The position numbers and the translations under genes are program-made. Below the pieces are notes generated by a model. The model searched no databases, was not told the DNA's origin, and worked only from the letters and a program-made list of their open reading frames with translations. From NCBI RefSeq assembly GCF_044324875.1, contig NZ_CP172185.1: DNA of 64,000 nt. One strand, written 5' to 3'. Below are positions 4,879 to 60,210 of the stretch, in pieces. This stretch comes from Escherichia coli (GTDB lineage Bacteria > Pseudomonadota > Gammaproteobacteria > Enterobacterales > Enterobacteriaceae). Each line of letters starts with the position of its first letter. The first letter of the stretch is position 1.

Positions 4879-5065
4879 GGAGGGTACTACCTTCACTTCT
4901 ACCTCTGCCTCCCAAACTCCGTAAAACTCATGCACAATCACCATATTACAGTCAACCCGAACATTATGAGCTCCACTGAATTCTACTGTTCACCCCCTAA
5001 ATCAAGCATAAAATGGGGGCATATTTGGGGGCCCATTGTGTTCAGTCAGTTTCAGGAGCCCCCAT

Positions 5066-6253
5066 ATGGCACTTACAGCCAGACAAGTCGAAACAGCCAA
5101 ACCTAAAGACAAAGATTATAAACTCTCTGATGAACGTGGTTTATATCTGCTGGTAAAAACCACGGGAGCACGCTACTGGCGCTTTAAGTACAGGATAGCA
5201 GGAAAGGAGAAAAAACTGTCCTTCGGTGTCTATCCTGACGTCTCCCTTGCAGAAGCCAGAACCAAACGCGACGATGCAAGGAAAATTATCTCCGAGGGCG
5301 GTGATCCCGGTGAAAAGAAACGAAGGGAAAAACTCTCACAGAAAATCTCTGTCACCAACACCTTCCATGCTCTCGCAATCGAATGGCATCATCATAAATC
5401 TTTATCATGGTCTGACAGTTACGCCAGAAGCGTACTGGAAGCTCTGGATAAAGACGTTTTCCCGTATCTGAGCAACCGGAGCGTTACTGATATCCTTCCA
5501 CTGGAAATGCTGGAAATACTACGTCGAATTGAAAAACGAGGCTCTCTGGAAAAACTACGCAAGGTCCGGCAATACTGCAATCAGATTTTCCGTTATGCCA
5601 TAGCCACAGGACGAGCCACTGTCAATCCAGCCTCAGAACTGAGCAGCACGCTGGCGGCACCAAAAACCGCACATTTTCCCCATCTGAGAGCGGATGAACT
5701 TCCTGTTTTTCTCCGGAAGCTCGCTGACTATCACGGCAGTCCTGTCACTCGTATGGCTACAAACCTGCTGATTCTGACCGGGCTCAGAACGATTGAATTG
5801 CGACTGGCCGAATGGTCAGAAATTGATTCTAGCAACGCACTCTGGCATATCCCTAGAGAGAGAATGAAAATGCGCCGGCCTCATATTGTTCCTCTGTCAC
5901 GCCAGGTCATTTCTGTTCTGCAGGAATTACATGGTTTTACCGGACAGTATCGCCTTATGCTACCCGGACGTTGCGATGTAAACAAACCTATGAGTGAAGG
6001 CTGCATCAATATGGTGCTCAAACGTATCGGTTACGATGGCAGGGCAACCGGTCATGGTTTTCGTCACACCATGAGTACCATTCTGCACGAACAGGGCTTT
6101 AATTCTGCCTGGATTGAAATGCAGTTAGCTCATGTGGATAAAAACTCCATCAGGGGTACCTATAATCATGCACATTATCTCGATGGTCGCCGTAAAATGA
6201 TGCAGTGGTACGCTGATTACATTGATTCTCTTATGGGAAAAACGCACAAATGA
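5066..6253 (+). CDS. Tyrosine recombinase, P4-type island integrase
   Basis: ORF 5036..6253; likely start MALTARQVETAKPKDKDYKL at 5066 with AGGAG 8 nt upstream; P4-integrase N-terminal signature and C-terminal catalytic region (HGFRHT...Y). Confidence 0.85.
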   Translation: MALTARQVETAKPKDKDYKLSDERGLYLLVKTTGARYWRFKYRIAGKEKKLSFGVYPDVSLAEARTKRDDARKIISEGGDPGEKKRREKLSQKISVTNTFHALAIEWHHHKSLSWSDSYARSVLEALDKDVFPYLSNRSVTDILPLEMLEILRRIEKRGSLEKLRKVRQYCNQIFRYAIATGRATVNPASELSSTLAAPKTAHFPHLRADELPVFLRKLADYHGSPVTRMATNLLILTGLRTIELRLAEWSEIDSSNALWHIPRERMKMRRPHIVPLSRQVISVLQELHGFTGQYRLMLPGRCDVNKPMSEGCINMVLKRIGYDGRATGHGFRHTMSTILHEQGFNSAWIEMQLAHVDKNSIRGTYNHAHYLDGRRKMMQWYADYIDSLMGKTHK

Positions 6254-18241: not shown

Positions 18242-18365
18242 TCAATGATCGGAAGCATGCCAAATCGTGATCGATTGTGATGCCAAACTGTGATCGGAGA
18301 TGGATGCCAAATCATGATCGATTCGAATGCCAAACTGCGATCGATTCAGATGCCATTTTGCACTA
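18242..18365. repeat. Five tandem ~23-bp direct repeats (ATGCCAAAYYRTGATCGRWKNNN), terminal repeats of the IS21-family element
   Basis: Seen directly; inverted versions lie at the other IS end. Confidence 0.6.
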
Positions 18366-20227
18366 AGCCCTTCGCTTGGCTCGCCAGGGTGCTGGATGTT
18401 AATAAACAGCGTCCGGTTATCCGGAGTGAACGCGATGCCGGTGATTTCGCAGCCGCGCGGGCCGGTCAGGAAGCGGCGGAACTCATTGGTACCGGGAATC
18501 GTCGCCACCATCTGGTTGTTGCCCATGCCTTTGTAATCTTTAATATTTATGGTTGATGACGACACGTCGGTCTGGATCCATAGCACGCCGCGGTGATCGA
18601 AGCTCAGGCCATCGGCGCTGCCGAATTCCGCACCCTTCATGCTGCCTTTGGTTTCCGGTTTGTCTGTATCGGTGCGACCGCCCATCACAAGAATATCCCA
18701 GGCAAACTGCAGCGCGGTCGGGTCACCGTTATGCTCCAGCCAGTGAATGATGTGGCCGTAAACGTTTTTGGCGCGCGGGTTGGCCGCATCCACTGGCGCT
18801 TTTCCTTCCTTACCGCGATCGCTGTTGTTGGTGAGCGTGCAGTAAACGCTGCCGGCGTGATATGGATCGACCGCAATCCACTCCGGGCGGTCCATTTTAG
18901 TGGCCCCCACGGCGTCTGCCGCCAGACGGGTTTTAATCAACAGGTCGCCCTGGTTTTCAAACCCTTTACTGGCGTCGAGCCCATTTTGTCCGAACACCAG
19001 CGGTAGCCACTCGCCTTTGCCGTCGTCGTTAAATTTCGCCACGTACAGAGTGCCTTTTTCCAGCAGGTGCATGTTGGCTTTGCGATCCTGCGGGTTGAAT
19101 TTTCCTTCCGAGACAAATTTATATATGTATTCGAATTTCTGGTCATCGCCCATATAGACCACAACGCGGTTATCCGGGGCAATTGTCACCGCTGCGCCTT
19201 CGTGTTTGATGCGACCAAGCGCGGTGTGCTTGCGCGGCACTGAATGCGGATCGTATGGATCGATTTCCACCACCCAGCCGAAGCGGTTCGGCTCGTTCGG
19301 CGTGGCGTCGACGCTGAACCTTTTATCCACTTCGTTCCAGCGGTAAGAGTCGTCGCTCCCGCTGATACCGTAACGTTTTTCCAGCGGGTTCATCTCTGCT
19401 TTTTTTACGAAAATATCGGACCAGTTCTCTTCACACGTCAGATAGGTGCCCCACGGCGTAAATCCGTTGGCACAGTTCTGCATGGTGCCGAGAATGATTT
19501 CGCCTTTCGGATCGTCAACTGTTTGCATCAGTGGGTTATGCAGCGCCGGACCGGTGATTTTCATCGGCGTGTTAACGGTGATGCGGCGTGCGAACGATGA
19601 CGGGCGCACCACTTCCCAGCCCAGGGGCACTTTTTTTACTTCAATGACCGACACGCCCATCGCGTTCTGGCCTTTAAGAGCTTTATCGGCGCTCCAGTTG
19701 GCATCGCCATCTTTAAACAGTAGACCGTTATCGATGTATTCATGGTTTATGGCAAGCAGGCCGTGATCGGAGCTGTTCCCGCCCTGCGGCAGGCTAAACC
19801 ACGCCATGCCGTCGTGGTGCATCCCGGCCTGCGCCGCCTGTTCTTCCGTGGTGTTGCTACCGTCGGTTTTAAAAACCGGCAGATTTCCGGCAATCCCGGT
19901 GGCGTCGCCCCATTTGTAGAAGGGCTTCGCGATGTATCCTTCCGGCACGATAACGGTATCTTCCGTGGAAACCGGCAGGCTGGTGAAACCGAGCGTCGTC
20001 GCTTTGCCGAGGTTACCGCTTGCTTTGGAGACCACTTTCGCCAGCGCGTTTTCCTGTTTCAGCAGAAATGGGAACGCTGCCGCGGCACCGGCGACCGTGC
20101 CTGCCTGTAACAGACGGCGGCGTGACAAATAGACTTCCGCCACCTGCGAAAACGCGCGGTTATCGCTCGGGTTACTGATTTCTTCACTATGCTCACGTTT
20201 GAATAAAGTTTTTAACGGTCTGCCCAT
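18242..20227 (-). pseudogene. PhoX-type (DUF839) Tat-signal phosphatase, C-terminus replaced by the IS21-family end
   Basis: Twin-arginine motif LSRRRLLQAG; beta-propeller phosphatase-like body; the last ~40 codons of the ORF are encoded by the IS terminal repeats. Confidence 0.55.
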
Positions 20228-26681: not shown

Positions 26682-28769
26682 TCAGAACTGATAGTTCAGC
26701 GACATCCAGTAATTTCTCTCAGGTATCACATAACCCGTTGTCGATGCCCCCGTCTGGAAGTAATCACCCGCATAAAGCGTACCACTGCCGGCACGATACA
26801 GACTTACGTCACTGTAATCCTTGTTAAGCACATTATTCACCGCTGCATTCAGCATCAGTGCATCCGTCACTTTCCACGACATGCCCGCATCCAGTACCGT
26901 CCAGGCTTTCAGATATTCACCTTTCTCATCATACACTTTCTTCTGTACAGCTGAGAGTGACGAATAATTCTGGGTGAAACGTGGCGTTTTCCCGCGGTAA
27001 CGGGCACCCAGCCATGATGTCACCTCTTCAGTAATCTGCCAGTTCAGTTTCGCATTCACCATATGCTCAGGGGTGTAACTCAGTGGTGCACCTTTATTAT
27101 CCCCATCCCGTTGTTCACTCTGCGTCCAGGTATAATTCAGAGACAGAGTCACATCCTCTGACAACAGAGGCAGTGTGCCGGCAAATTCCACGCCCTGAGT
27201 CCTAGCCTTTCCGCTGTTTGTGTAGCTGCGGGTATTATCATCAATGGAATAAGATACGATCTTGTTGGAGAATTCTGTCATAAAGCCCGTGATATTGGCG
27301 TTCAGACCGGCATGATTATCGTAATACACGCCCGCTTCATAACTGACACTCTCCTCCGGCTTCAGGTCCGGGTTACCGAGAAGATTCGTACGCCCCTGAC
27401 CGGACACACCGCTGATCCCCTTATGTAACTGCCCCATGCTGGGCGCCTTATATCCCGTGGTCACCCCACCTTTCAGCGTCCACGCATCAGTCACATCCCA
27501 GACCATATATGCCCGGGGACTGAAGTGTCCTCCGAACACCTCATAGCGTTCATAGCGGCTACCCGCAGTCAGTGCAAATGCATCCGTGATATACCACTCA
27601 TCCTCAACAAATGCCGACCAGCTTTTCTGACGGAAGGTTTCACCAGTACTGGCGAGAACAACCCCGTCTTTCATGGAGGAGTTCTGATACTCACCACCGA
27701 CGGTAACCTTGTGTGATTCCCCCAGAGGTGCAAACAGTAATGAGCTCAGGATAAGATTCGACTCCTTAAGCTCCCTCGGCTGGCCGGCAAGCCCCCATTT
27801 ATCACGCTGCAGTACGCTACGTACAAGCTGACGGCCTTTATTTTCCGTCTCATTCCAGTTCAGGGATGACTTCCAGGCTCCGAAGGTGAATGTATGATCA
27901 TAGCCTGCTGAAATTTTATTACGCTCATAGCGCAGGGTGCGATCATAACCGCCCGTCAGACTGCCCAGCTGGCCATCTCGGTTATCATAACGCTGCCGGG
28001 CGATATCCATATCAATCCAGAGTACATCCTTGTCCGTCGCTTTCCAGTCAAGACGACCACCTGCATTATAATTCTGTGATTCCGTGGGATAAGGGATACG
28101 CGTAGCTGAGGTGTCGCTCAGTGATGTGACCGATGAGCCCTGACGCTGCTGTGTGCTGCCACGTACCTGAAGGCTGAGTGAATCATCCACAAGGGGACCG
28201 CTGCTCCAGAAATTAAACTGGCTGCTGTTCCCCCATTTGTTACTTTCCTGCAGGTTCAGCCCGGCATTAACCGAAGAGCGCCATTTGTCTGCATTCTTTT
28301 TGGTGATGATATTCACCACGCCCCCCATGGCATCAGAGCCGTACAGAGTGGACATGGGGCCCCTGATAATCTCAATACGTTCGATGGCGGCCAGAGGTGG
28401 CATAAAACCCGTATTCATGGCAGCATAACCGTTTGGGGTTACGTCACTGCTCCCGCCCTGACGGACACCATCGATCAGTATCAGCGTATAACTGGCAGGC
28501 ATTCCGCGGATGCTGATTTCCAGCCCACCTGTTTTACCCGTACCGCTTTCAACATCCACCCCCTCTACGGATCTCAGTGCCTCCCCCAGATCATGATACT
28601 GGCTGGATCGCAAATCCTCCTGGCTGATCACTGAAACACTCGCAGCTGCACTGGTTAATTTTTTTTCATAGCCAGACGCCGTGACTACCATCACATCTTC
28701 CGCAGCCATACTGCTGACTGAAAACCCGAGACAAGGGATGGCTACTGAAGCCAGAGTGGTTACTCGCAT
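26682..28769 (-). CDS. iha: TonB-dependent outer-membrane siderophore receptor/adhesin Iha (IrgA homologue)
   Basis: 695 aa; signal peptide; TonB-box/plug then beta-barrel ending ...YWMSLNYQF; closely matches Iha as recalled. Confidence 0.8.
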   Translation of the reverse strand: MRVTTLASVAIPCLGFSVSSMAAEDVMVVTASGYEKKLTSAAASVSVISQEDLRSSQYHDLGEALRSVEGVDVESGTGKTGGLEISIRGMPASYTLILIDGVRQGGSSDVTPNGYAAMNTGFMPPLAAIERIEIIRGPMSTLYGSDAMGGVVNIITKKNADKWRSSVNAGLNLQESNKWGNSSQFNFWSSGPLVDDSLSLQVRGSTQQRQGSSVTSLSDTSATRIPYPTESQNYNAGGRLDWKATDKDVLWIDMDIARQRYDNRDGQLGSLTGGYDRTLRYERNKISAGYDHTFTFGAWKSSLNWNETENKGRQLVRSVLQRDKWGLAGQPRELKESNLILSSLLFAPLGESHKVTVGGEYQNSSMKDGVVLASTGETFRQKSWSAFVEDEWYITDAFALTAGSRYERYEVFGGHFSPRAYMVWDVTDAWTLKGGVTTGYKAPSMGQLHKGISGVSGQGRTNLLGNPDLKPEESVSYEAGVYYDNHAGLNANITGFMTEFSNKIVSYSIDDNTRSYTNSGKARTQGVEFAGTLPLLSEDVTLSLNYTWTQSEQRDGDNKGAPLSYTPEHMVNAKLNWQITEEVTSWLGARYRGKTPRFTQNYSSLSAVQKKVYDEKGEYLKAWTVLDAGMSWKVTDALMLNAAVNNVLNKDYSDVSLYRAGSGTLYAGDYFQTGASTTGYVIPERNYWMSLNYQF

Positions 28770-38707: not shown

Positions 38708-39967
38708 TTATGCTTTTCTCGCTAACGCGTCTATATCCGAAAAATACTCTTTAATTCCCTCTAGGATAGATTCTGCCACTTGTTGTTGGAATCTTGCCGT
38801 TTTCAGTTTGCGCTCTTCCTCAACGTTACTGATAAACGCCGTTTCGACCAGAATGGAGGGAATATCAGGTGCTTTCAGCACGGCAAACCCGGCCTGTTCA
38901 ACCTGATTTTTATGCAGCTTGTTGATTTTACCGAGCTTATTCAGCACCGCTTTACCCAACTTCAGGCTGTCGGCAATGGTCAGAGACTGCACCATATCGA
39001 ACATGGTGTGGTCGACATAGCGGTCACCGCTTTTGCTCACGCCGCCAATCAAGTCCGAGGCGTTCTGGGTTTGTGCCAGATATTTTGCCGCAGTACTTGT
39101 CGCGCCTTTGGTCGAAAGCGCAAACACGGAAGAACCGCTCGGCTGGCGACTGGTAAAGGCATCAGCATGGATAGAAACAAAAAGGTCAGCACGTTGTTTC
39201 TGTGCTTTTGCTACACGCACTTGCAACGGAATGAAGATGTCTTCATTGCGCGTCATGTACACCTTCATATTACCCTCTTTTTCGATCAGAGAGCGCAGAC
39301 GGCGAGCTATTTGCAATACCACGTCTTTTTCGCGTGTTTTGTATTTCCCCACCGCACCGGGGTCTTCGCCACCGTGGCCGGGGTCAAGCATAATGACAAT
39401 CGGACGATCACGCCCTGCTTTACCCGGTTGTGGACCACTTTGTGCTGGCGGCACCTGCTTTTCGAGGTCGCCTTTGTTGTAATCCTCCAGCAGCGCCAGC
39501 AGCGGGTCCTGCATATCCTGTGCATTGGCCGGATAGAGGTCCATCACCAGACGCTCTTTAAACCCGGCGACCGGCGCAAGGGCAAACAGCTGCGGTTTTA
39601 CGTTTTGCTTTAATTCAAAAACCATGCGTACGGTTTGCGGGTCAAATTGCCCGACGCGCGCCGACTTGATGAACGGGTCGTCTGCACGAATTTGTGCCGC
39701 CATCCCCTTGAGTACCGAGTTCAGGTTTACATCTTCGATATCCACCACCACACGTTCAGGGTTACTTAACGCGAACTGCTTATATTGCAGCTGACGATTT
39801 GATTCTACCGTCACGCGGGTGTAGCTGGACGCAGGCCAGACGCGTACCGCCACGACCTGGCTGACCGCAGCCAGGCTGACCTGACTTACGCTCAATAGCC
39901 ACATGGCGCCCGCACCTTGCAGTAAACGACGACGGCTGATTACATAATTATAGTTAGATACCAGCAT
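38708..39967 (-). CDS. amiC: N-acetylmuramoyl-L-alanine amidase AmiC (Tat-exported), divergent 5' end
   Basis: 419 aa; [10 protein letters not shown] Tat motif; body matches AmiC as recalled; first ~10 codons and upstream DNA differ from K-12 and are AT-rich. Confidence 0.8.
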
Positions 39968-48925: not shown

Positions 48926-49570
48926 TTAACGAACCGTCCATGCAGGGCTGAAATCCTCTTCCTGAAACAGCTCTGTCAGCCCGCTAATCTGTTTCAGCCT
49001 CAGCACTTCATCCTGGTCCATGCCCAACTCTGTGCCAATACGCTCATCTGTCCAGCCCAGACGTGAGAGGTCCCTGACAATGTCAGACATTGACGTTACC
49101 TGGTGTTTTCCCCTGGCACGGTTATGCCGTATGGTTGCGGCAATACGTGATGCCTGTCCCTTTCTCTCTGGATTAATACAGGCCACTGGCAGCCAGCCCT
49201 TCAGACGTTTTCTCGTATCCGCTTTCCTGCCCAGCAACTGACGATGAAAACCATCCACGACCAGATAATGCTCCTTCTCTTCCGAAACCACCACAGGCTG
49301 CGTGAATCCATCCTGCTCCAGTGAATGTTTAAGCAGTTTTTTTTCACTGGAAGACATGACATTGGGATTGTAATCGTTGGCCACCACCTCATCCGCTTTC
49401 ACCCACAACACACAGTCCACAGGCTCCTGTGCAAAAGGGCTGACCTCATGCAACACCCTGCGCAGATGATTAAGGGCTCGTATGGTCTCTTCTTCAGATC
49501 GTTCCTGACTGAAGTACTGTCGAATCATGTTGCTCAATACTTCCACCTCAGGTGTCACAGAATCCCCCAT
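48926..49570 (-). CDS. ParB-like nuclease-domain protein (IbrB/YbdM-like)
   Basis: 214 aa; VVDGFHR motif; 16-bp overlap with the upstream partner; symbol withheld because homology is from memory. Confidence 0.6.
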   Translation of the reverse strand: MGDSVTPEVEVLSNMIRQYFSQERSEEETIRALNHLRRVLHEVSPFAQEPVDCVLWVKADEVVANDYNPNVMSSSEKKLLKHSLEQDGFTQPVVVSEEKEHYLVVDGFHRQLLGRKADTRKRLKGWLPVACINPERKGQASRIAATIRHNRARGKHQVTSMSDIVRDLSRLGWTDERIGTELGMDQDEVLRLKQISGLTELFQEEDFSPAWTVR

Positions 49571-50781
49571 TCCTTCCTCCTTTCTTTCATACGCTGCAGA
49601 TAACGTTCATAGTGCCGGGGTTTGTTCGGACTGAAGGAGAGGGTCCGACACCAGAAATCATTCTTTATGAGTGTCTTACAGATACGTCGCCAGGACGGGA
49701 TATCCCGGCTCCCCAGGTCATTCTCCTGTTCATCCGGGATGTCATCCGGGAAGCCCCGCGTCTGATACCAGCGCAGGTAGACAGCAATTTTATTACGGTA
49801 ATGTTCTGCCGTTCTTTCCGGCATCACATCCAGCAGGAACATCGCATAGCTACGCCAGGTATGATGAGGTGGCTTCGTGATACGCTTACGCAGGGCAAAA
49901 TAGGCACCGCTCTCATTGGCATAAAGCGCCCCGCTGGCAGCACCCGACACCCGCTCACACATCCTGGCCCAGGTTTCCGGCTCCAGAACATGGTAAAGCC
50001 ACAGTCCCTTACGCTGTTCCGGGCCAAAAGGCTCACAGACCCGCATGTTGCGTAACGGCACGCCGGCACGGTACATCAGGTCATACAGGGGATTGTAGAT
50101 AGCCCGGGTTCTGGCGTTATATATCCATATATCACGGGCTTTCCAGTCATACAACGGATACAAGGTGTAATAAAACCCTTCAGGTGACGCTGTGGTCCAG
50201 GGTTTATCATCTGCATATCTCAGTTTGCGCTGAGACACCAGTCCCATAAAGCGATTGAGCGATTCATCAGCACGAACACCAGTCAGTATTGCCACTCCAC
50301 ACCGGTTACCGGCAAACCAGGAAGAAAATGCCGGAACAAATTCTTCAAACGTCATGGCATACCGATAAAATGGGAAATACGACATATCTGTAATAGCGTC
50401 ATCTGGTGGCTGACGAACCCACTCCACACCTGGTTCCCAGCATATCCATTCCGGCTGAAACTGAGAGACACCGTTTACCGTAGTCAGGGGGAGTGCCACC
50501 CAGTAAAAGGTATCCGTCACATCCCGGTACATTTCCCGCATCTTCTGAACATGTTCAATGGTGCACTGATACTGAGCTTCCCAGTCAATGAATAATACAG
50601 AGAAACGACGTTTCTTCCTGCGAGCCACATCAGCCGCAAGATGGAGCAGCACAGTGGAGTCTTTTCCTCCGGAAAAAGACAAACAGACAGAAGAGAATGT
50701 TTCAAACAACCATTCAATACGGCGAATAGAAGAATGAAATACATCATCCTCTTTTATTATCTTTCGTATAGTTCCTGACAT
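49555..50781 (-). CDS. PAPS-reductase-like (DUF3440) protein (IbrA/YbdN-like)
   Basis: 408 aa; SGGKDS PP-loop motif near the N-terminus; paired with the ParB-like gene. Confidence 0.6.
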   Translation of the reverse strand: MSGTIRKIIKEDDVFHSSIRRIEWLFETFSSVCLSFSGGKDSTVLLHLAADVARRKKRRFSVLFIDWEAQYQCTIEHVQKMREMYRDVTDTFYWVALPLTTVNGVSQFQPEWICWEPGVEWVRQPPDDAITDMSYFPFYRYAMTFEEFVPAFSSWFAGNRCGVAILTGVRADESLNRFMGLVSQRKLRYADDKPWTTASPEGFYYTLYPLYDWKARDIWIYNARTRAIYNPLYDLMYRAGVPLRNMRVCEPFGPEQRKGLWLYHVLEPETWARMCERVSGAASGALYANESGAYFALRKRITKPPHHTWRSYAMFLLDVMPERTAEHYRNKIAVYLRWYQTRGFPDDIPDEQENDLGSRDIPSWRRICKTLIKNDFWCRTLSFSPNKPRHYERYLQRMKERRKEWGIL

Positions 50782-53235: not shown

Positions 53236-55505
53236 TGTGTGCCCGGAGTTCAGGGCGAGCATAGACGCTCAAATGAACCACGAGTCTGTCTGGAATATTG
53301 AACCGGTAACTCACGATGAGAAACCCAACAATCCCACCGGGTGTGACGGTGGAGAACCTGAGCGGCAGTGACCTGCGGCATGCCCGCAGGGTGATGTAAC
53401 CCGCTGACAACGGGGATTGAGGCGAGATCACTAAGCCGAGATGATCCTCAAGGTTAAGTACTGAAAGGCTTAAGAATATGAACCCGTTAATCCGCCTCTG
53501 TGGGTTGAAAACGTCACCACGGCCTACGTGATCTGACAGGCCGTGCAGGAGGAACTGGCAGTGATACGTAAGCACTGCCGGTCGAAGGTGTTTTGACATG
53601 TATGCGAAACTCCGGGGCAGCAGCGTCTATCACGCTCGCGTTGCTGACTTCTGCCAACTTGCGGCAAGCAAGGATAAAGAGTGCGACGGGCAGCCTCCTC
53701 AGTATGTCTGAGTCCAGTCAGGCAAACCGGGGAAGGTCAGCGACGGATGTTAAGGGGGCATGGCTCCGATGACGCGCTGGCTGGCGGAGCTTCCGTAGTA
53801 GTCCGCGATGGGGAAAGCCCATTACATGGCGAAGGGAAGCAGTTTGAATGTGTCTGCGACGTAAATTAACTGACCTAACGAGGTGAAGACCTTTGATAAT
53901 CAGCGAAATGCAACGCAAGCTTGCCACATGGGCAGCCACCGATCCGTCCCTACGGATTCAACGGCTGCTGCGTCTGATAACACAACCAGAATGGCTGGCT
54001 GAAGCGGCGCGGATCACGCTTTCATCAAAGGGGGCGAATACCCCCGGTGTTGATGGCGTGAACAAAACAATGCTACAGGCCAGACTGGCTGTTGAGCTGC
54101 AAATCCTCAGGGATGAATTACTCTCAGGCCACTACCAGCCCTTGCCCGCCAGGCGGGTTTACATCCCTAAAAGCAATGGCAAACTGCGACCACTGGGTAT
54201 CCCCGCGTTGCGGGATCGTATTGTTCAGCGGGCCATGCTGATGGCGATGGAGCCGATATGGGAGAGTGATTTTCATACGCTCTCATATGGCTTCCGGCCT
54301 GAGCGCAGTGTCCACCACTCGATCCGCACGGTGAAATTACAGCTCACCGACTGCGGTGAAACCCGGGGACGCTGGGTGATTGAAGGCGACCTGTCCAGTT
54401 ACTTCGACACCGTACATCATCGACTGCTGATGAAGGCTGTACGCCGCAGGATCAGTGACGCACGTTTCATGACTCTGCTGTGGAAAACCATCAAGGCGGG
54501 ACATATCGATGTCGGTCTCTTTCGGGCGGCCAGTGAAGGTGTGCCACAGGGCGGTGTTATATCGCCGCTATTGTCGAACATCATGCTGAATGAGTTCGAT
54601 CAATACCTGCATGAGCGCTACCTGAGCGGGAAAGCAAGAAAAGATCGGTGGTACTGGAATAACAGTATCCAACTGGGCCGAAGTACGGCGGTCAGAGAAA
54701 ACTGGCAGTGGAAACCCGCGGTGGCGTACTGCCGCTATGCCGATGATTTTGTCCTCATCGTCAAAGGCACCAAAGCACAGGCGGAAGCCATCAGGGAGGA
54801 GTGTCGGGGTGTGCTCGAAGGCAGTCTGAAACTCAGGCTGAACATGGATAAGACTAAAATCACCCATGTTAATGACGGCTTTATCTTTCTGGGGCACAGG
54901 ATCATTCGCAAACGCAGTCGTTATGGCGAGATGCAAGTGGTCTCAACGATCCCGCTGGAGAAAGCCAGAAACTTCGCCGCATCGCTGACAGCACTGTTAT
55001 CAGGCAACTACAGTGAAAGCAAAGTCGATATGGCTGAACAACTCAACCGAAAACTGAAAGGCTGGGCCATGTTCTATCAGTTCGTTGATTTTAAGGCCAA
55101 AGTCTTCAGTTATATCGACCGTGTCGTGTTCTGGAAGCTGGCTCACTGGCTGGCCCGCAAATACCGTACAAGTATCGCTTCCCTGATGAGGTGGTGGTGT
55201 AAATCACCGAAACCGGGTCAGAGCAAAACGTGGGTTTTATTTGGTAAAACCAATCACGGCAAGCTCAGCGGCGAAATACTGTACCGGTTGGTGGGGCAAG
55301 GCAAGAAGCTGTTCCGCTGGCGGCTACCCGAAGGTAATCCCTATCTGAGGACGGAAACCAGAAAGACGTATACATCGCGCTTTACAGAAGTGGCAATGGC
55401 GTTCGCCAGCGTTTAAATGGAGAGCCGGATGCGCTGAAAGGTGCATGTCCGGTTCGGGGAGGAGAGGCAGGGAAATAGTCCGACTACGCCCTGCCTCTTA
55501 CTCTA
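53236..55505 (+). mobile_element. Bacterial group II intron with intron-encoded protein (boundaries +/- 3 bp)
   Basis: 5' TGTGTG start; IEP ORF 53893..55416; domain V-like GAGCCGGATGCGCTGAAAGGTGCATGTCCGGTTC at 55422..55455 followed by a domain VI-like stem. Confidence 0.75.
53893..55416 (+). CDS. Group II intron reverse transcriptase/maturase
   Basis: 507 aa, full length; RT motifs including YADD (CRYADDFVLIV) and a C-terminal maturase region. Confidence 0.85.
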   Translation: MIISEMQRKLATWAATDPSLRIQRLLRLITQPEWLAEAARITLSSKGANTPGVDGVNKTMLQARLAVELQILRDELLSGHYQPLPARRVYIPKSNGKLRPLGIPALRDRIVQRAMLMAMEPIWESDFHTLSYGFRPERSVHHSIRTVKLQLTDCGETRGRWVIEGDLSSYFDTVHHRLLMKAVRRRISDARFMTLLWKTIKAGHIDVGLFRAASEGVPQGGVISPLLSNIMLNEFDQYLHERYLSGKARKDRWYWNNSIQLGRSTAVRENWQWKPAVAYCRYADDFVLIVKGTKAQAEAIREECRGVLEGSLKLRLNMDKTKITHVNDGFIFLGHRIIRKRSRYGEMQVVSTIPLEKARNFAASLTALLSGNYSESKVDMAEQLNRKLKGWAMFYQFVDFKAKVFSYIDRVVFWKLAHWLARKYRTSIASLMRWWCKSPKPGQSKTWVLFGKTNHGKLSGEILYRLVGQGKKLFRWRLPEGNPYLRTETRKTYTSRFTEVAMAFASV

Positions 55506-55959: not shown

Positions 55960-56800
<841 letters not shown>

Positions 56801-57322
56801 ATAGTTTCTCCCGTATACCGCTCATGCAACTCCCGCATTAAAATATACTGTTCCTTCCGGATAATTACGTTAAAATATACACCTGCGTGCATCTGTGTCA
56901 GACTCCGTTAGATACCAGCGTACATTGTAAACATGCCGGATGCACGCAATACAATAATCGGTCTTTTCGGAGTTATAGTCACCAGGCTGGCATCCCGTAA
57001 ATATGTATCAGGTAGCAATTCAGGAAGCGAACAAAAGCGCCTGGAGAAGGTTATCTCTGATAATAATTTACATGAAATGTCTCCTTTATTCTTCGCGAAT
57101 AAGGCCTTCAGTGTTCTCCCCTTTTCAGCAATTCTTACCGTAGTAATCACTCCTGCCTGTGTATAACACGAGAATTGCCAGAGTTTAACGTTTCGGTATC
57201 GTTATCCTGCATGATGTTGAACAGAACCGGGCGTGAATTCTGCGCCAGAATTTTCTTTCGAGGAACAGGTGATGCTGCCAACTTACTGATTTAGTGTATG
57301 ATGGTGTTTTTGAGGTGCTCCA

Positions 57323-57598
57323 GTGGCTTCTGTTTCTATCAGCTGTCCCTCCTGTTCAGCTACTGACGGGGTGGTGCGTAACGGCAAAAGCACCGCCGGA
57401 CATCAGCGCTATCTCTGCTCTCACTGCCGTAAAACATGGCAACTGCAGTTCACTTACACCGCTTCTCAACCCGGTACGCACCAGAAAATCATTGATATGG
57501 CCATGAATGGCGTTGGATGCCGGGCAACTGCCCGCATTATGGGCGTTGGCCTCAACACGATTTTACGTCACTTAAAAAACTCAGGCCGCAGTCGGTAA
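57323..57598 (+). CDS. insA: IS1 InsA (copy 2)
   Basis: Identical to copy 1. Confidence 0.9.
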
Positions 57599-58020
57599 CC
57601 TCGCGCATACAGCCGGGCAGTGACGTCATCGTCTGCGCGGAAATGGACGAACAGTGGGGCTATGTCGGGGCTAAATCGCGCCAGCGCTGGCTGTTTTACG
57701 CGTATGACAGGCTCCGGAAGACGGTTGTTGCGCACGTATTCGGTGAACGCACTATGGCGACGCTGGGGCGTCTTATGAGCCTGCTGTCACCCTTTGACGT
57801 GGTGATATGGATGACGGATGGCTGGCCACTGTATGAATCCCGCCTGAAGGGAAAGCTGCACGTAATCAGCAAGCGATATACGCAGCGAATTGAGCGGCAT
57901 AACCTGAATCTGAGGCAGCACCTGGCACGGCTGGGACGGAAGTCGCTGTCGTTCTCAAAATCGGTGGAGCTGCATGACAAAGTCATCGGGCATTATCTGA
58001 ACATAAAACACTATCAATAA
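57517..58020 (+). CDS. insB: IS1 InsB frame (copy 2)
   Basis: Identical to copy 1. Confidence 0.9.
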
Positions 58021-58412
58021 GTTGGAGTCATTACCCGAGGAACATTCCGGGTTATCTGTAGTACAGGAGGAGATTTTCTCCTATTTCAAATAAAATTCAA
58101 TGACAGGTGAATATTTAAATATAAATGCATCGCTTCAACAGAGAAATCGGAATTACGCCCGGAACCAGGCCTGAATGAATAATGGAGGAGGTAAAATAAT
58201 ATTATTGATGAAAATATCAAATTAAGTCCCCCTTCTCCTTCCCCAGCTTAAATATACTTACTTTTTCACTGGATAATATGTTATTGAATTACAAAGTTGA
58301 TCCTGATATACATGATTTCCGGCTCTTGCATCCAGTGATAACTTTATATACTCCTGCAAAGGCGAACTTCGTAAAAGTATACTTTTCTGTTGTAAGCATT
58401 GAGGTATCGAAT

Positions 58413-58637
58413 ATGAGTGAGAATACCGGAAAATCCCATGAAAATAAAATGGTTATTATTGACTGCGGGGAATATGATGAATACCTTCGTAACGCGTGGT
58501 TCCGAGGTTTTCGGGAAGGTTATGATATGGCGATGAAATTTGGATTAGGCTGCCAGCAATGTTATGAAACAGGTGAAAAAATAGCATGCGCAAGAGCTGA
58601 AGAATGCCGTAAAAAGATTAAGGTAATAAAACACTGA
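58413..58637 (+). CDS. Hypothetical small Cys-containing protein (74 aa)
   Basis: Internal Met MSENTGKSHENK with GAGGT RBS; convergent with sodC; no family recognised. Confidence 0.3.
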   Translation: MSENTGKSHENKMVIIDCGEYDEYLRNAWFRGFREGYDMAMKFGLGCQQCYETGEKIACARAEECRKKIKVIKH

Positions 58638-58765
58638 AACGGGCTGTCTGATATTTCTGTGAGCTAAAAAGACACCGTAATACAGGTATCTCACAGTAAC
58701 TGAAAGATATGCACATGCAGCCAGGGAAGATTAAGGGTAAGGGAGGATATCCCTTACCTGATTGA

Positions 58766-59290
58766 TTATGGGATGATACCACAGGCAATTCTTGCACCAC
58801 CGCCACCTAGAGGTTCAGGATGGTCATCATGATTATCACCTCCTGCGTGGAGCATTAGCGAACGGCCATCGAGCTCCTTTAATTCAGATAGTCTTGGCGC
58901 AAGCACCGGGTAGGTTGCTTTTCCGTCATGAGTGACATAAAGCGCAGGGAGATCACCCAGGTGGCCATCAGGAGACCATGGACCGAGATGCTTCCCTGTT
59001 TTTTCCGGGTCAAAGTGACCACCTGCAGATAAAGCAGCGACAGTTTTTCCATCTTTCAGGGCAGGAGCACAACTTGCGTTTTCATGTACATGAAAACCAT
59101 GAATGCCGGCGGGTAAGGAGTGAAGATCAGGGGTGAACAGCAGCCCGTAGGGTGTCTTCTGGATGGTTATTTTACCAATATTTCGCTCTTTTCCGTCACT
59201 ATCAACAAGATTCATTGTTACATCTTTGGTGGCTGCATATCCACAGGATGATGTAGCCAGAATCACAAAGGCAATAAGTTTACGTTTCAT
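58766..59290 (-). CDS. sodC: Periplasmic Cu/Zn superoxide dismutase (island-borne, divergent from chromosomal SodC)
   Basis: 174 aa; signal peptide; metal-ligand motifs HGFHVHE and [12 protein letters not shown]. Confidence 0.85.
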
Positions 59291-59435
59291 AAACCCTCTG
59301 TTAACAGGTTAAAGATTTACTCAATAACTGTTGCGAAATAACAGTCAGCCAGATGATAGCTTATGATAGTTATTGAATGTGACTATCAGTGTAATTAATT
59401 ATGCAAATTAGAAGGAATGTTATGTGTGAAGCGCC

Positions 59436-59594
59436 CCTGTATCCCGCTCATACTGGCTAACCCAGACACGCAGAGTCTGTGGCGTACAGCCAGCATTTGA
59501 GGCAATGGAACAAATTACCCCAATTGTGAATCATACTCATCCTGTTTACCTCTTTCTCAGGGAGTTTAGTCTCCAGGATTCCCGGAGCAGTTCA
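59436..59594 (-). mobile_element. IS629-like right-end remnant with internal deletion
   Basis: Matches the IS629 OrfA-start/right-IR region (...CAGGGAGTTTAGTCTCCAGGATTCCCGG...GTTCA) with about 85 bp missing. Confidence 0.6.
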
Positions 59595-60210
59595 AAGTGC
59601 CCTGTGCTGCTTAAAGTGCCGCTGCATGCCACCACATGGCTGAGCAGCAACAGGTATTGTTGTTCCTTCATGTTGTTCACGCAACCAGCGTAATACCACC
59701 GGCGAGGATGGACTGTCAGTGTGATTACGTTCAGTAATACGTTCATAAAAGGAAGTTCAGAATGCATGAATCTGTTGTCCGTTGATGTTTCCTTCTGTCG
59801 AATTGTGTGTGAAGTGGACAATCAGAAAATGCGGCCAGTGATCCACTGCCTGTTGAATAAAACGCCGGATGTCTCCCGGCTCTGCAAGTAATGCTTCAGT
59901 TTCCTGCACTATTTTATCCCTGTTGAATTTTGTCAAACCGGTGCAGACACGCAGGAAAGTATGCCAGCACTGGTGTAATGCCAGTAACATACAATAAGAA
60001 TGAAATGACGAATCAGTCAGGAAAGGGTGCCCCCATTGGCAACCCATTGACTGAGCAGAGGATACAATCAGGAAGGTTAACGAGAGTATCTCCGACATCA
60101 GGGGCAGGATTGATTTCTACAATACCAGCGCCGGCATTGAGCCTGTACATAGATTTATGTAATTGCCTGATTTTGATATGTTCAATTCAACATCAAATGA
60201 AAGCTAAATT

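Follow-up and report, generated by a model that had tools for sequence, protein, structure and literature searches.

We found that a 64,000-nucleotide stretch of Escherichia coli DNA (the window) carries, in an iron-uptake island fragmented by insertion sequences (IS), an extra gene for a periplasmic Cu,Zn superoxide dismutase (SodC), whose sequence places it in the prophage-associated SodC-F lineage, and that this sodC is paired with a convergent gene for an orphan protein of 74 aa (Table 1). Taken as a whole, the evidence makes it likely that the two form an island-borne cargo module, in which the SodC is an additional enzyme of SodC-F descent and the 74-aa open reading frame (ORF) a genuine gene co-inherited with it. 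A reading of the ORF list and the raw sequence found the coordinates that the initial annotation had given for sodC and the 74-aa ORF to be exact.

Table 1. Features of the sodC module and its immediate flanks, in positions of the window
Feature	Position	Strand	Remarks
IS1	57268..58035	+	768 bp; ends about 210 bp short of the start of the conserved module at 58247
Two-gene cargo module (putative)	58247..59426		Holds the small ORF and sodC, each with its 5′ region, and the terminator; delimited by colinearity with Klebsiella pneumoniae
GAGG ribosome-binding site	58401..58404	+	8 nt ahead of the ATG of the 74-aa ORF; read from the sequence
74-aa orphan gene	58413..58637	+	RefSeq WP_001470144.1, hypothetical protein; convergent with sodC, 128-nt spacer
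Terminator-like hairpin, bidirectional	58735..58759		Stem of 9–10 bp and loop of 5 nt; lies where the two genes converge
sodC	58766..59290	-	Intact, 174 aa; predicted periplasmic Cu,Zn superoxide dismutase, SodC-F (prophage-associated) lineage
sodC minimal 5′ region	59291..59354	-	Kept in every relocated copy
IS3-family fragment (IS1203/IS629-like end), diverged	59432..59600		Right boundary of the module

The sodC product matches the Sod_Cu domain of Pfam (PF00080; E=6e-32, 111 bits against a cut-off of 28.9), the SodC equivalog model of NCBIfam (NF007628; 218 bits against a cut-off of 165), and PHROG 1975 (3e-89), a 'superoxide dismutase precursor' family of the moron category, and its best relative of solved structure is SodCI of Salmonella (6d52/1eqw; E=1e-64). 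Alignments with both K-12 SodC and SodCI (6d52) show identical residues at His67, His69, His92, His101, His110, Asp113, His148, Cys74, Cys170, and Arg167. These include what we take to be the Cu ligands (His67, His69, the bridging His92, and His148), the Zn ligands (His92, His101, His110, and Asp113), the disulfide (Cys74-Cys170), and the catalytic Arg (Arg167). By inspection, the N-terminus bears an export signal comprised of MKRK, a hydrophobic core, and CGYA|A. This region aligns with the signal peptide of the SodC-F proteins, whose processing has been demonstrated experimentally (PMC2569942), and has TSSC where these possess the partial lipobox AASC, with Cys16 in the same position. Judged from its sequence, the island sodC is intact, in that all metal ligands, the disulfide cysteines, the Arg, and the export signal are present, and superoxide dismutase activity is predicted for its product. 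The protein is represented in RefSeq as WP_000823671.1 and is named 'E. coli SodC2' in the supplementary alignment of a 2025 paper; a literature search for a functional study of WP_000823671.1 did not recover one.

The hairpin separating the two genes starts 7 nt past the sodC stop codon, is flagged by a terminator scan on both strands, and folds as RNA with an energy of -14.4 kcal/mol (z = -2.6); its stem is kept in K. pneumoniae, and it lies within the stretch shared with the phage copies of the gene (58726–59298; see below). A scan for sigma-70 promoters returned no more sites than in shuffled sequence, with none well placed for sodC or the 74-aa gene. Control of sodC by Fur or Zur, considered on account of the iron-island context, was dropped, as no box upstream of the gene is convincing: the best candidates match 13/19 and 14–15/23 positions, which is no better than many sites elsewhere in the window.

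The sodC of the window is additional to the universal chromosomal gene. Of 5426 complete E. coli genomes, 5425 have the chromosomal sodC at an identity of at least 95%, and because it is there regardless of the window gene, the latter is an extra copy; it occurs itself at an identity of at least 99% in 125 of these 5426 genomes (2.3%), many of them isolated from poultry or humans. When the window sodC was run in a sensitive blastn search, 694 genomes were matched, viz., the 125 with at least 99% identity and 569 with a SodC-F-like gene at approximately 75–77% nucleotide identity; blastn in the 'distant' mode failed to detect the chromosomal sodC. The encoded protein is 57% identical to K-12 SodC (b1646), approximately 60% to SodCIII of Fels-1 and SodCI of Gifsy-2 from Salmonella, and 63–67% to the chromosomal SodC proteins of Serratia and Pseudomonas. 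Identity reaches 80% with SodC of an Stx2a-converting phage (175 aa vs 174 aa in the window), which we took as representing the SodC-F type in our comparisons, and some E. coli plasmids likewise carry a sodC approximately 80% identical to that of the window. Neighbor-joining with 200 bootstraps paired the window protein with that of K. pneumoniae in 197/200 replicates, placed the two inside a SodC-F-like clade in 161/200, and grouped them with K-12 SodC in 0/200, support within the SodC-F clade being moderate (104–161/200). On these sequence grounds, the enzyme is assigned to the mobile prophage-type lineage that includes SodC-F, SodCI, and SodCIII. The initial annotation had described it as clearly divergent from the chromosomal SodC and as an extra copy of a usually phage-borne kind, and both statements are borne out, the former by an identity of 57% rather than near-identity, and the latter by a phylogeny in which the nearest relatives are the prophage enzymes of this group.

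Tree placement and identities together make SodC-F1 and SodC-F2 of O157:H7 the closest characterized enzymes. These are dimeric, more active, and more stable to proteases and chelators, are expressed in log phase and anaerobically in an RpoS-independent manner, and are partly lipid-anchored via the atypical lipobox AASC (D'Orazio et al., 2008; PMC2569942). The same study describes the chromosomal enzyme of E. coli as a less stable monomer whose expression depends on RpoS, and remarks on further sodC-F-like genes in strain SMS-3-5 and some EPEC strains (PMC2569942). By analogy, the SodC of the window is probably, like SodC-F1 and SodCI, dimeric and protease-resistant, with RpoS-independent expression.

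The surroundings of sodC are a typical ExPEC/APEC-type iron-uptake island that has been fragmented by IS elements. In the window and the related strains SCU-115, GF43, and GF4, the flanks contain fragments of the IS3, IS110, IS21/IS100, IS66, IS256, IS200, and IS1 types, together with a group II intron, an ibrAB-like gene pair, and sitABCD; the aerobactin genes (iucABCD-iutA) are found in the strains in which the island was read further, viz., SCU-115 and GF4. Prophage remnants, which the initial annotation had suggested looking for in the flanks, did not turn up: the approximately 17–20 kb on each side contain no phage genes or fragments, in the window or in any of these three strains, and what is found instead is the IS-shattered island with its sitABCD, iuc/iutA, and ibrAB-like genes. 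Its placement of sodC between an IS1 and an IS629 remnant proved correct. The IS1 is bracketed by a 9-bp target duplication (CGAGGAACA) at 57259–57267 and 58036–58044, its inverted repeat ends could be read, and its insertion is recent, because other strains are contiguous across the site; strain GF4 has the same insertion as the window. The IS3-family fragment at the right boundary of the module is about 88% identical to the end of IS1203/IS629-like elements and is in two pieces, which are 87–90% identical to elements labeled 'IS3-like element IS1203 family transposase'.

The extent of the module is given by a K. pneumoniae contig (L007/L008), on which the same convergent pair is colinear at 85.4% nucleotide identity over exactly 58247–59426, with homology stopping at 59426; this entire segment is present at an identity of at least 99% in the aforementioned 125 of 5426 complete E. 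coli genomes. Smaller and larger pieces have relocated. Six E. coli and Escherichia albertii plasmids, the majority of poultry origin, carry an identical sodC, and the E. albertii plasmid that we examined carries only 58542–59354 of the window, at 100% identity. Strain ECCNB12-2 has a second chromosomal copy, corresponding to 56829–59354, which is relocated and inverted and sits beside an ABC transporter; we considered this as the ancestral context and rejected it, since the segment derives from the same island by relocation and inversion. The plasmid copy and this second copy both break off at 59354, which leaves 64 nt ahead of the sodC start; the drive for sodC therefore lies within those 64 nt or comes from outside. 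The phage relatives of sodC lie between the tail genes I and J or beside lom, and their DNA similarity to the window (76.6%) is limited to 58726–59298, i.e., sodC with 40 nt downstream and 8 nt upstream. As this homology ends at the gene and the hairpin, the phage-shared unit comprises sodC and its terminator, in the manner of a moron; the sodC of the window itself is not sited in the tail region of a lambdoid prophage.

Two other origins for the window sodC have to be weighed against this. An origin merely as an allele of the chromosomal E. coli sodC that has diverged, or as a paralog duplicated from it, would fit with the two proteins being of the same family and the same length, and with the window protein passing the NCBIfam SodC equivalog model; however, such a relationship is refuted by their identity of only 57%, by the 0/200 bootstraps in which the window protein grouped with K-12 SodC, and by the separate presence of the chromosomal gene in 5425/5426 genomes independently of the window gene, and we give it practically no credence. 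The reading implied by the initial annotation, that sodC is the last remnant of a degraded lambdoid prophage formerly at the same spot, draws on the position of its closest characterized relatives between the tail genes I and J of prophages, and on the inclusion of the terminator hairpin in the homology with the phage copies. Yet neither the window nor the related strains have any phage gene or fragment within approximately 17–20 kb on either side, the similarity to phage DNA stops 8 nt upstream and 40 nt downstream of sodC, the module lies beside an ABC transporter in K. pneumoniae and beside katG in another bacterium with no phage genes in either, and the partner ORF is missing from all phage collections searched, so that we consider a prophage formerly at this spot to be distinctly improbable. 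We favor instead the view that 58247–59426 is a 1.2-kb, horizontally acquired cargo module in an IS-fragmented ExPEC/APEC iron-acquisition island: sodC and its terminator would most likely have escaped from a phage, or been acquired by phages from a common source, and the gene would now move as IS-flanked cargo among chromosomal islands and F-type plasmids. Going by its characterized relatives, SodC would be exported to the periplasm, possibly becoming lipid-anchored in part via Cys16, would acquire its Cu and Zn there, and would remove superoxide coming from outside, e.g., from the phagocyte oxidative burst, which may aid survival under host oxidative attack.

The second gene of the module, which the initial annotation had recorded as a convergent, small, Cys-containing, and unrecognized ORF, indeed runs toward sodC and encodes five cysteines, three of which are invariant. 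It also has no family match, as that label implied; nonetheless, it is not a chance frame, being conserved, under purifying selection, and found only beside this type of sodC. Between the window and K. pneumoniae, the ORF shows no indels, and its ATG, GAGG ribosome-binding site, and stop are all conserved; the nucleotide differences number 8, 7, and 15 at the three codon positions, and the other two frames are full of stops. The dN/dS for this pair is 0.22 at a dS of 0.43, the corresponding values for sodC being 0.09 and 0.45. A third, enterobacterium-like lineage (L010/L011) encodes a small protein of 75 aa (P0130), found by phmmer, with 54% identity to the 74-aa protein over the whole alignment and 63% over the phmmer-matched stretches. 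At this distance (L010), pN is 0.26 and pS 0.91, i.e., synonymous sites are saturated. The small gene of L010 again adjoins a sodC of the SodC-F type, whose product is 71% identical to the window SodC, and the gene order is permuted to sodC, an IS3 fragment, the small gene, and katG. This pattern of substitution and retention marks the 74-aa ORF as a genuine protein-coding gene under purifying selection. A longer, 119-aa version of it that some gene finders call (P0001, P0002) was rejected, as its N-terminal extension is interrupted by stops in K. pneumoniae.

The family to which this gene belongs is tiny and, so far, strictly linked to sodC. The 74-aa protein has no match in Pfam, NCBIfam, PHROG, or PADLOC, and no significant match among curated profiles or solved structures. 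When 5.8 billion proteins were queried by word-indexed search, neither the 74-aa sequence alone nor a profile recovered relatives beyond the three lineages. An exhaustive phmmer search of 1.84 billion cluster representatives, the one that found P0130, added outside these lineages just P0131, a 382-aa low-complexity repeat protein (phmmer E=7e-5) regarded as a spurious match. Pattern scans of one genome per GTDB species and of IMG/VR yielded no further relatives, and by tblastn the gene is absent from GenBank phages and is present on plasmids only in truncated form, with the plasmid sodC surviving a cut at 58542. It does not occur next to any other sodC locus that we fetched, including the prophage copies. 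Members were found only in E. coli, K. pneumoniae, and L010, in each case beside a sodC of the SodC-F type, and no copy unlinked to sodC was found among approximately 15 billion proteins. Since the plasmid copies are truncated and the prophage copies are without the gene, it is not needed for the maintenance of sodC. With three lineages the sampling is small, and a single ancestral linkage may underlie all of them. A literature search did not find the pairing of sodC with an orphan CxxC hairpin gene described, and this recurrent association, which rests on the three lineages, appears to be new.

An alignment of the three lineages reveals the invariant core EYD..R.AW.RGFREGY.MA..FGL.CQQC.ETGEK.A.ARA..C. 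Three of the five cysteines (C47, C50, and C65) are invariant; the third lineage has Tyr in place of C59, and conservation does not extend to C18. Neither a signal peptide nor a hydrophobic segment is seen in the protein. AlphaFold2, run with the three-lineage alignment, returned five concordant models with a mean pLDDT of 78.5 (87–96 over residues 21–60), in which approximately the first 13 residues are disordered and are followed by an antiparallel hairpin of helices 18–42 and 47–73; the CxxC motif (C47-x2-C50) is placed at the N-terminus of helix 2, in agreement with an earlier model. The protein is predicted to be a cytoplasmic two-helix hairpin. A Foldseek search of the PDB with this model recovered only generic hairpins, with nothing better than E=1, a fold search of BFVD gave nothing below E=0.1, and a sequence-profile search of the PDB produced no informative match. 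Two types of small metal-binding protein were considered and rejected. The copper chaperones of the CopZ/Atx1 type adopt a ferredoxin-like β-α-β-β-α-β fold with MxCxxC in the first loop; the 74-aa protein has two helices and no strands in the model, and has no match to the HMA domain. The zinc-binding anti-sigma (ZAS) motif, H-x3-C-x2-C, is excluded by an invariant Phe (Phe43) at the position four residues before C47.

As to what this gene might be, several readings compete. Were the frame a product of chance and the conserved sequence non-coding, e.g., a 3′ UTR or a small RNA, this would accord with the shortness of the ORF, with its want of a family match, and with the unusually high conservation of approximately 58526–58610, where only 3 differences from K. 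pneumoniae occur in 85 nt; however, the substitutions fall mostly at third codon positions (8, 7, 15) with a dN/dS of 0.22, the alignment is free of indels, both alternative frames are closed by numerous stops, the third lineage retains a 75-aa frame with 54% protein identity, and the sequence has no match in Rfam, all of which makes a chance frame very unlikely. Considerably more weight, only a little short of an even chance, attaches to the ORF being a functionally unrelated hitch-hiker or a decaying leftover that was captured once together with sodC. The similar E. coli-K. pneumoniae dS values of the two genes (0.43 and 0.45) are as expected of one co-inherited block, the plasmid copies truncate the ORF and keep sodC, prophage and other SodC-F-type loci are devoid of it, and it is without functional annotation in Pfam, NCBIfam, PHROG, and PADLOC. 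Passive carriage is harder to reconcile with purifying selection that holds at saturated synonymous divergence (pN 0.26 vs pS 0.91), with a linkage that in L010 has outlasted both a reordering of the genes and the insertion of an IS, and with there being no sodC-unlinked copy among the approximately 15 billion proteins.

Our best guess, which we hold with low confidence, is that the 74-aa protein has a thiol- or metal-dependent role, accessory or regulatory, in the oxidative-stress response and is not a passive hitch-hiker, because it has a CxxC motif at the N-terminus of a helix and because its gene has sodC and, in one lineage, katG as neighbors. Co-capture as a hitch-hiker is nearly as likely as this accessory or regulatory role, because sodC persists without the 74-aa gene on plasmids and in phages. 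A more specific proposal, about which we are doubtful, is that the protein is a dedicated partner of the horizontally acquired SodC, making 58247–59426 a previously unrecognized two-gene oxidative-stress module. As such a partner, it could function as a cytoplasmic thiol or Cu(I) sensor, or as a chaperone, through which SodC expression or metallation is adjusted, and its homolog in the third lineage might act on the adjacent KatG as well.

It is established that extra SodC enzymes of the phage type help Salmonella and EHEC to survive oxidative attack by the host. Our observations indicate that the SodC-F lineage circulates outside phages too: approximately 2% of complete E. coli genomes have it in their sit/aerobactin island, and it is also borne by F-type plasmids of E. 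coli and E. albertii. The island sodC is useful for virulence-gene typing and is not in itself surprising, being already annotated in RefSeq; the fresh point is the orphan gene strictly linked to it. If the 74-aa gene were to encode an accessory factor of SodC, it would bear on the regulation or metallation of periplasmic Cu,Zn superoxide dismutases in enterobacteria.

Comparison with known systems places the two genes differently. The 74-aa protein resembles the CopZ/Atx1 chaperones, the Spx-type redox switches, and the CHCH/Cox17 hairpins in being small, in having a CxxC motif at the N-terminus of a helix, and in having no export signal, and the neighbors of its gene are likewise oxidative-stress genes (sodC and, in L010, katG). 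Nevertheless, no sequence or fold homology to any of these was found: CopZ and Spx have ferredoxin-like and thioredoxin-like folds, respectively, whereas the 74-aa protein is predicted to be an all-α hairpin, and unlike the twin CX9C of CHCH/Cox17 proteins, its cysteines follow the pattern C-x2-C-x8-C-x5-C on a single helix. With the chromosomal E. coli SodC (b1646), the window SodC shares the enzyme family, the predicted periplasmic site, and the passing of the NCBIfam equivalog model, but it differs in being found in 2.3% of genomes rather than universally and in being only 57% identical. SodCI (Gifsy-2) and SodCIII (Fels-1) of Salmonella belong to the same wider mobile lineage, with approximately 60% identity and conservation of all catalytic residues, yet they are more distant than SodC-F, are sited in phage tail regions, and have no partner ORF. 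SodC-F1 and SodC-F2, for their part, are prophage-borne, whereas the copy in the window lies among IS elements in an iron-uptake island; the 5′ region of the phage copy is unrelated, with homology stopping 8 nt upstream of the ATG, and the phage copies occur without the 74-aa gene that accompanies the sodC of the window. For all these differences in setting, it is SodC-F1 and SodC-F2 that the window SodC most resembles, in its clade, its 80% identity, the Cys at the lipobox position, the terminator hairpin, and its occurrence as an extra copy beside the chromosomal sodC.

A second copy of the segment bearing sodC and the convergent small ORF is found in ECCNB12-2, where it corresponds to window positions 56829-59354 and occurs inverted and relocated to a locus immediately behind an ABC-transporter operon (L025, the second-copy locus; NZ_CP033635.1 5186590-5205114). 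Given that the right joint of this copy, at window position 59354, is common to it and the E. albertii plasmid copy, we suggest that there is a recurrent breakpoint at this position, 64 nt upstream of sodC. In the third lineage of the small ORF, the cluster is comprised of sodC, the small ORF, and a further gene coding for a KatG-type catalase-peroxidase, which shows only ~75% nucleotide identity to enterobacterial katG.

A block of 85 nt inside the small ORF (58526-58610) has just 3 differences between the E. coli and K. pneumoniae versions, as against a whole-gene dS of 0.43; a rough estimate by hand gives ~1 silent change observed for this block versus ~5 expected (p ~0.04). This low divergence could have arisen by chance or by gene conversion, or an overlapping constraint could lie behind it. 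A search with phmmer also recovered a weak match (E=7e-5) between residues 26-58 of the small-ORF product and P0131, a metagenomic protein of 382 aa that has seven tandem repeats and contains CSFC...YETGQS; low complexity or the repeats probably account for this match, rather than homology.

Further genes of the island are listed in the table, including a P4-like integrase that may be close to the edge of the island; ARAGORN detected no tRNA genes in the whole 64-kb window. The unannotated DNA to the left of IS1 contains a sub-threshold Rfam match (56637-56719, minus strand) to isrC (RF01387), a Salmonella island small RNA, with a score of 30.8 bits versus the gathering score of 39 (E=8e-4). 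The group II intron gene ltrA is intact in the related strain GF4, whereas the annotations of SCU-115 and GF43 list it as a pseudogene interrupted by an internal stop.

Coordinates of features in the window and in two comparison loci (L010, third lineage of the small ORF; L015, S. enterica subsp. houtenae)
Feature	Locus	Coordinates	Strand	Remarks
Phage-type (P4-like) integrase	window	5036-6253	+	
PhoX alkaline phosphatase	window	18242-20227	-	
TonB-dependent receptor	window	26682-28769	-	
amiC amidase	window	38708-39967	-	extra copy
IbrB-like and PAPS-reductase (IbrA-like) pair	window	48926-50781	-	
ltrA, group II intron reverse transcriptase/maturase	window	53893-55416	+	507-aa ORF, uninterrupted in the window
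KatG-type catalase-peroxidase	L010	2177-4348	+	723 aa; 465 nt downstream of small ORF
sodC	L015	3001-3531		non-phage, island-type; 54% identical

The sodC gene of S. enterica subsp. houtenae adjoins an autotransporter, and a tRNA-Gly gene lies ~1.6 kb away from it. As this version is of the non-phage, island type, it shows that Salmonella too has mobile sodC genes outside prophages.
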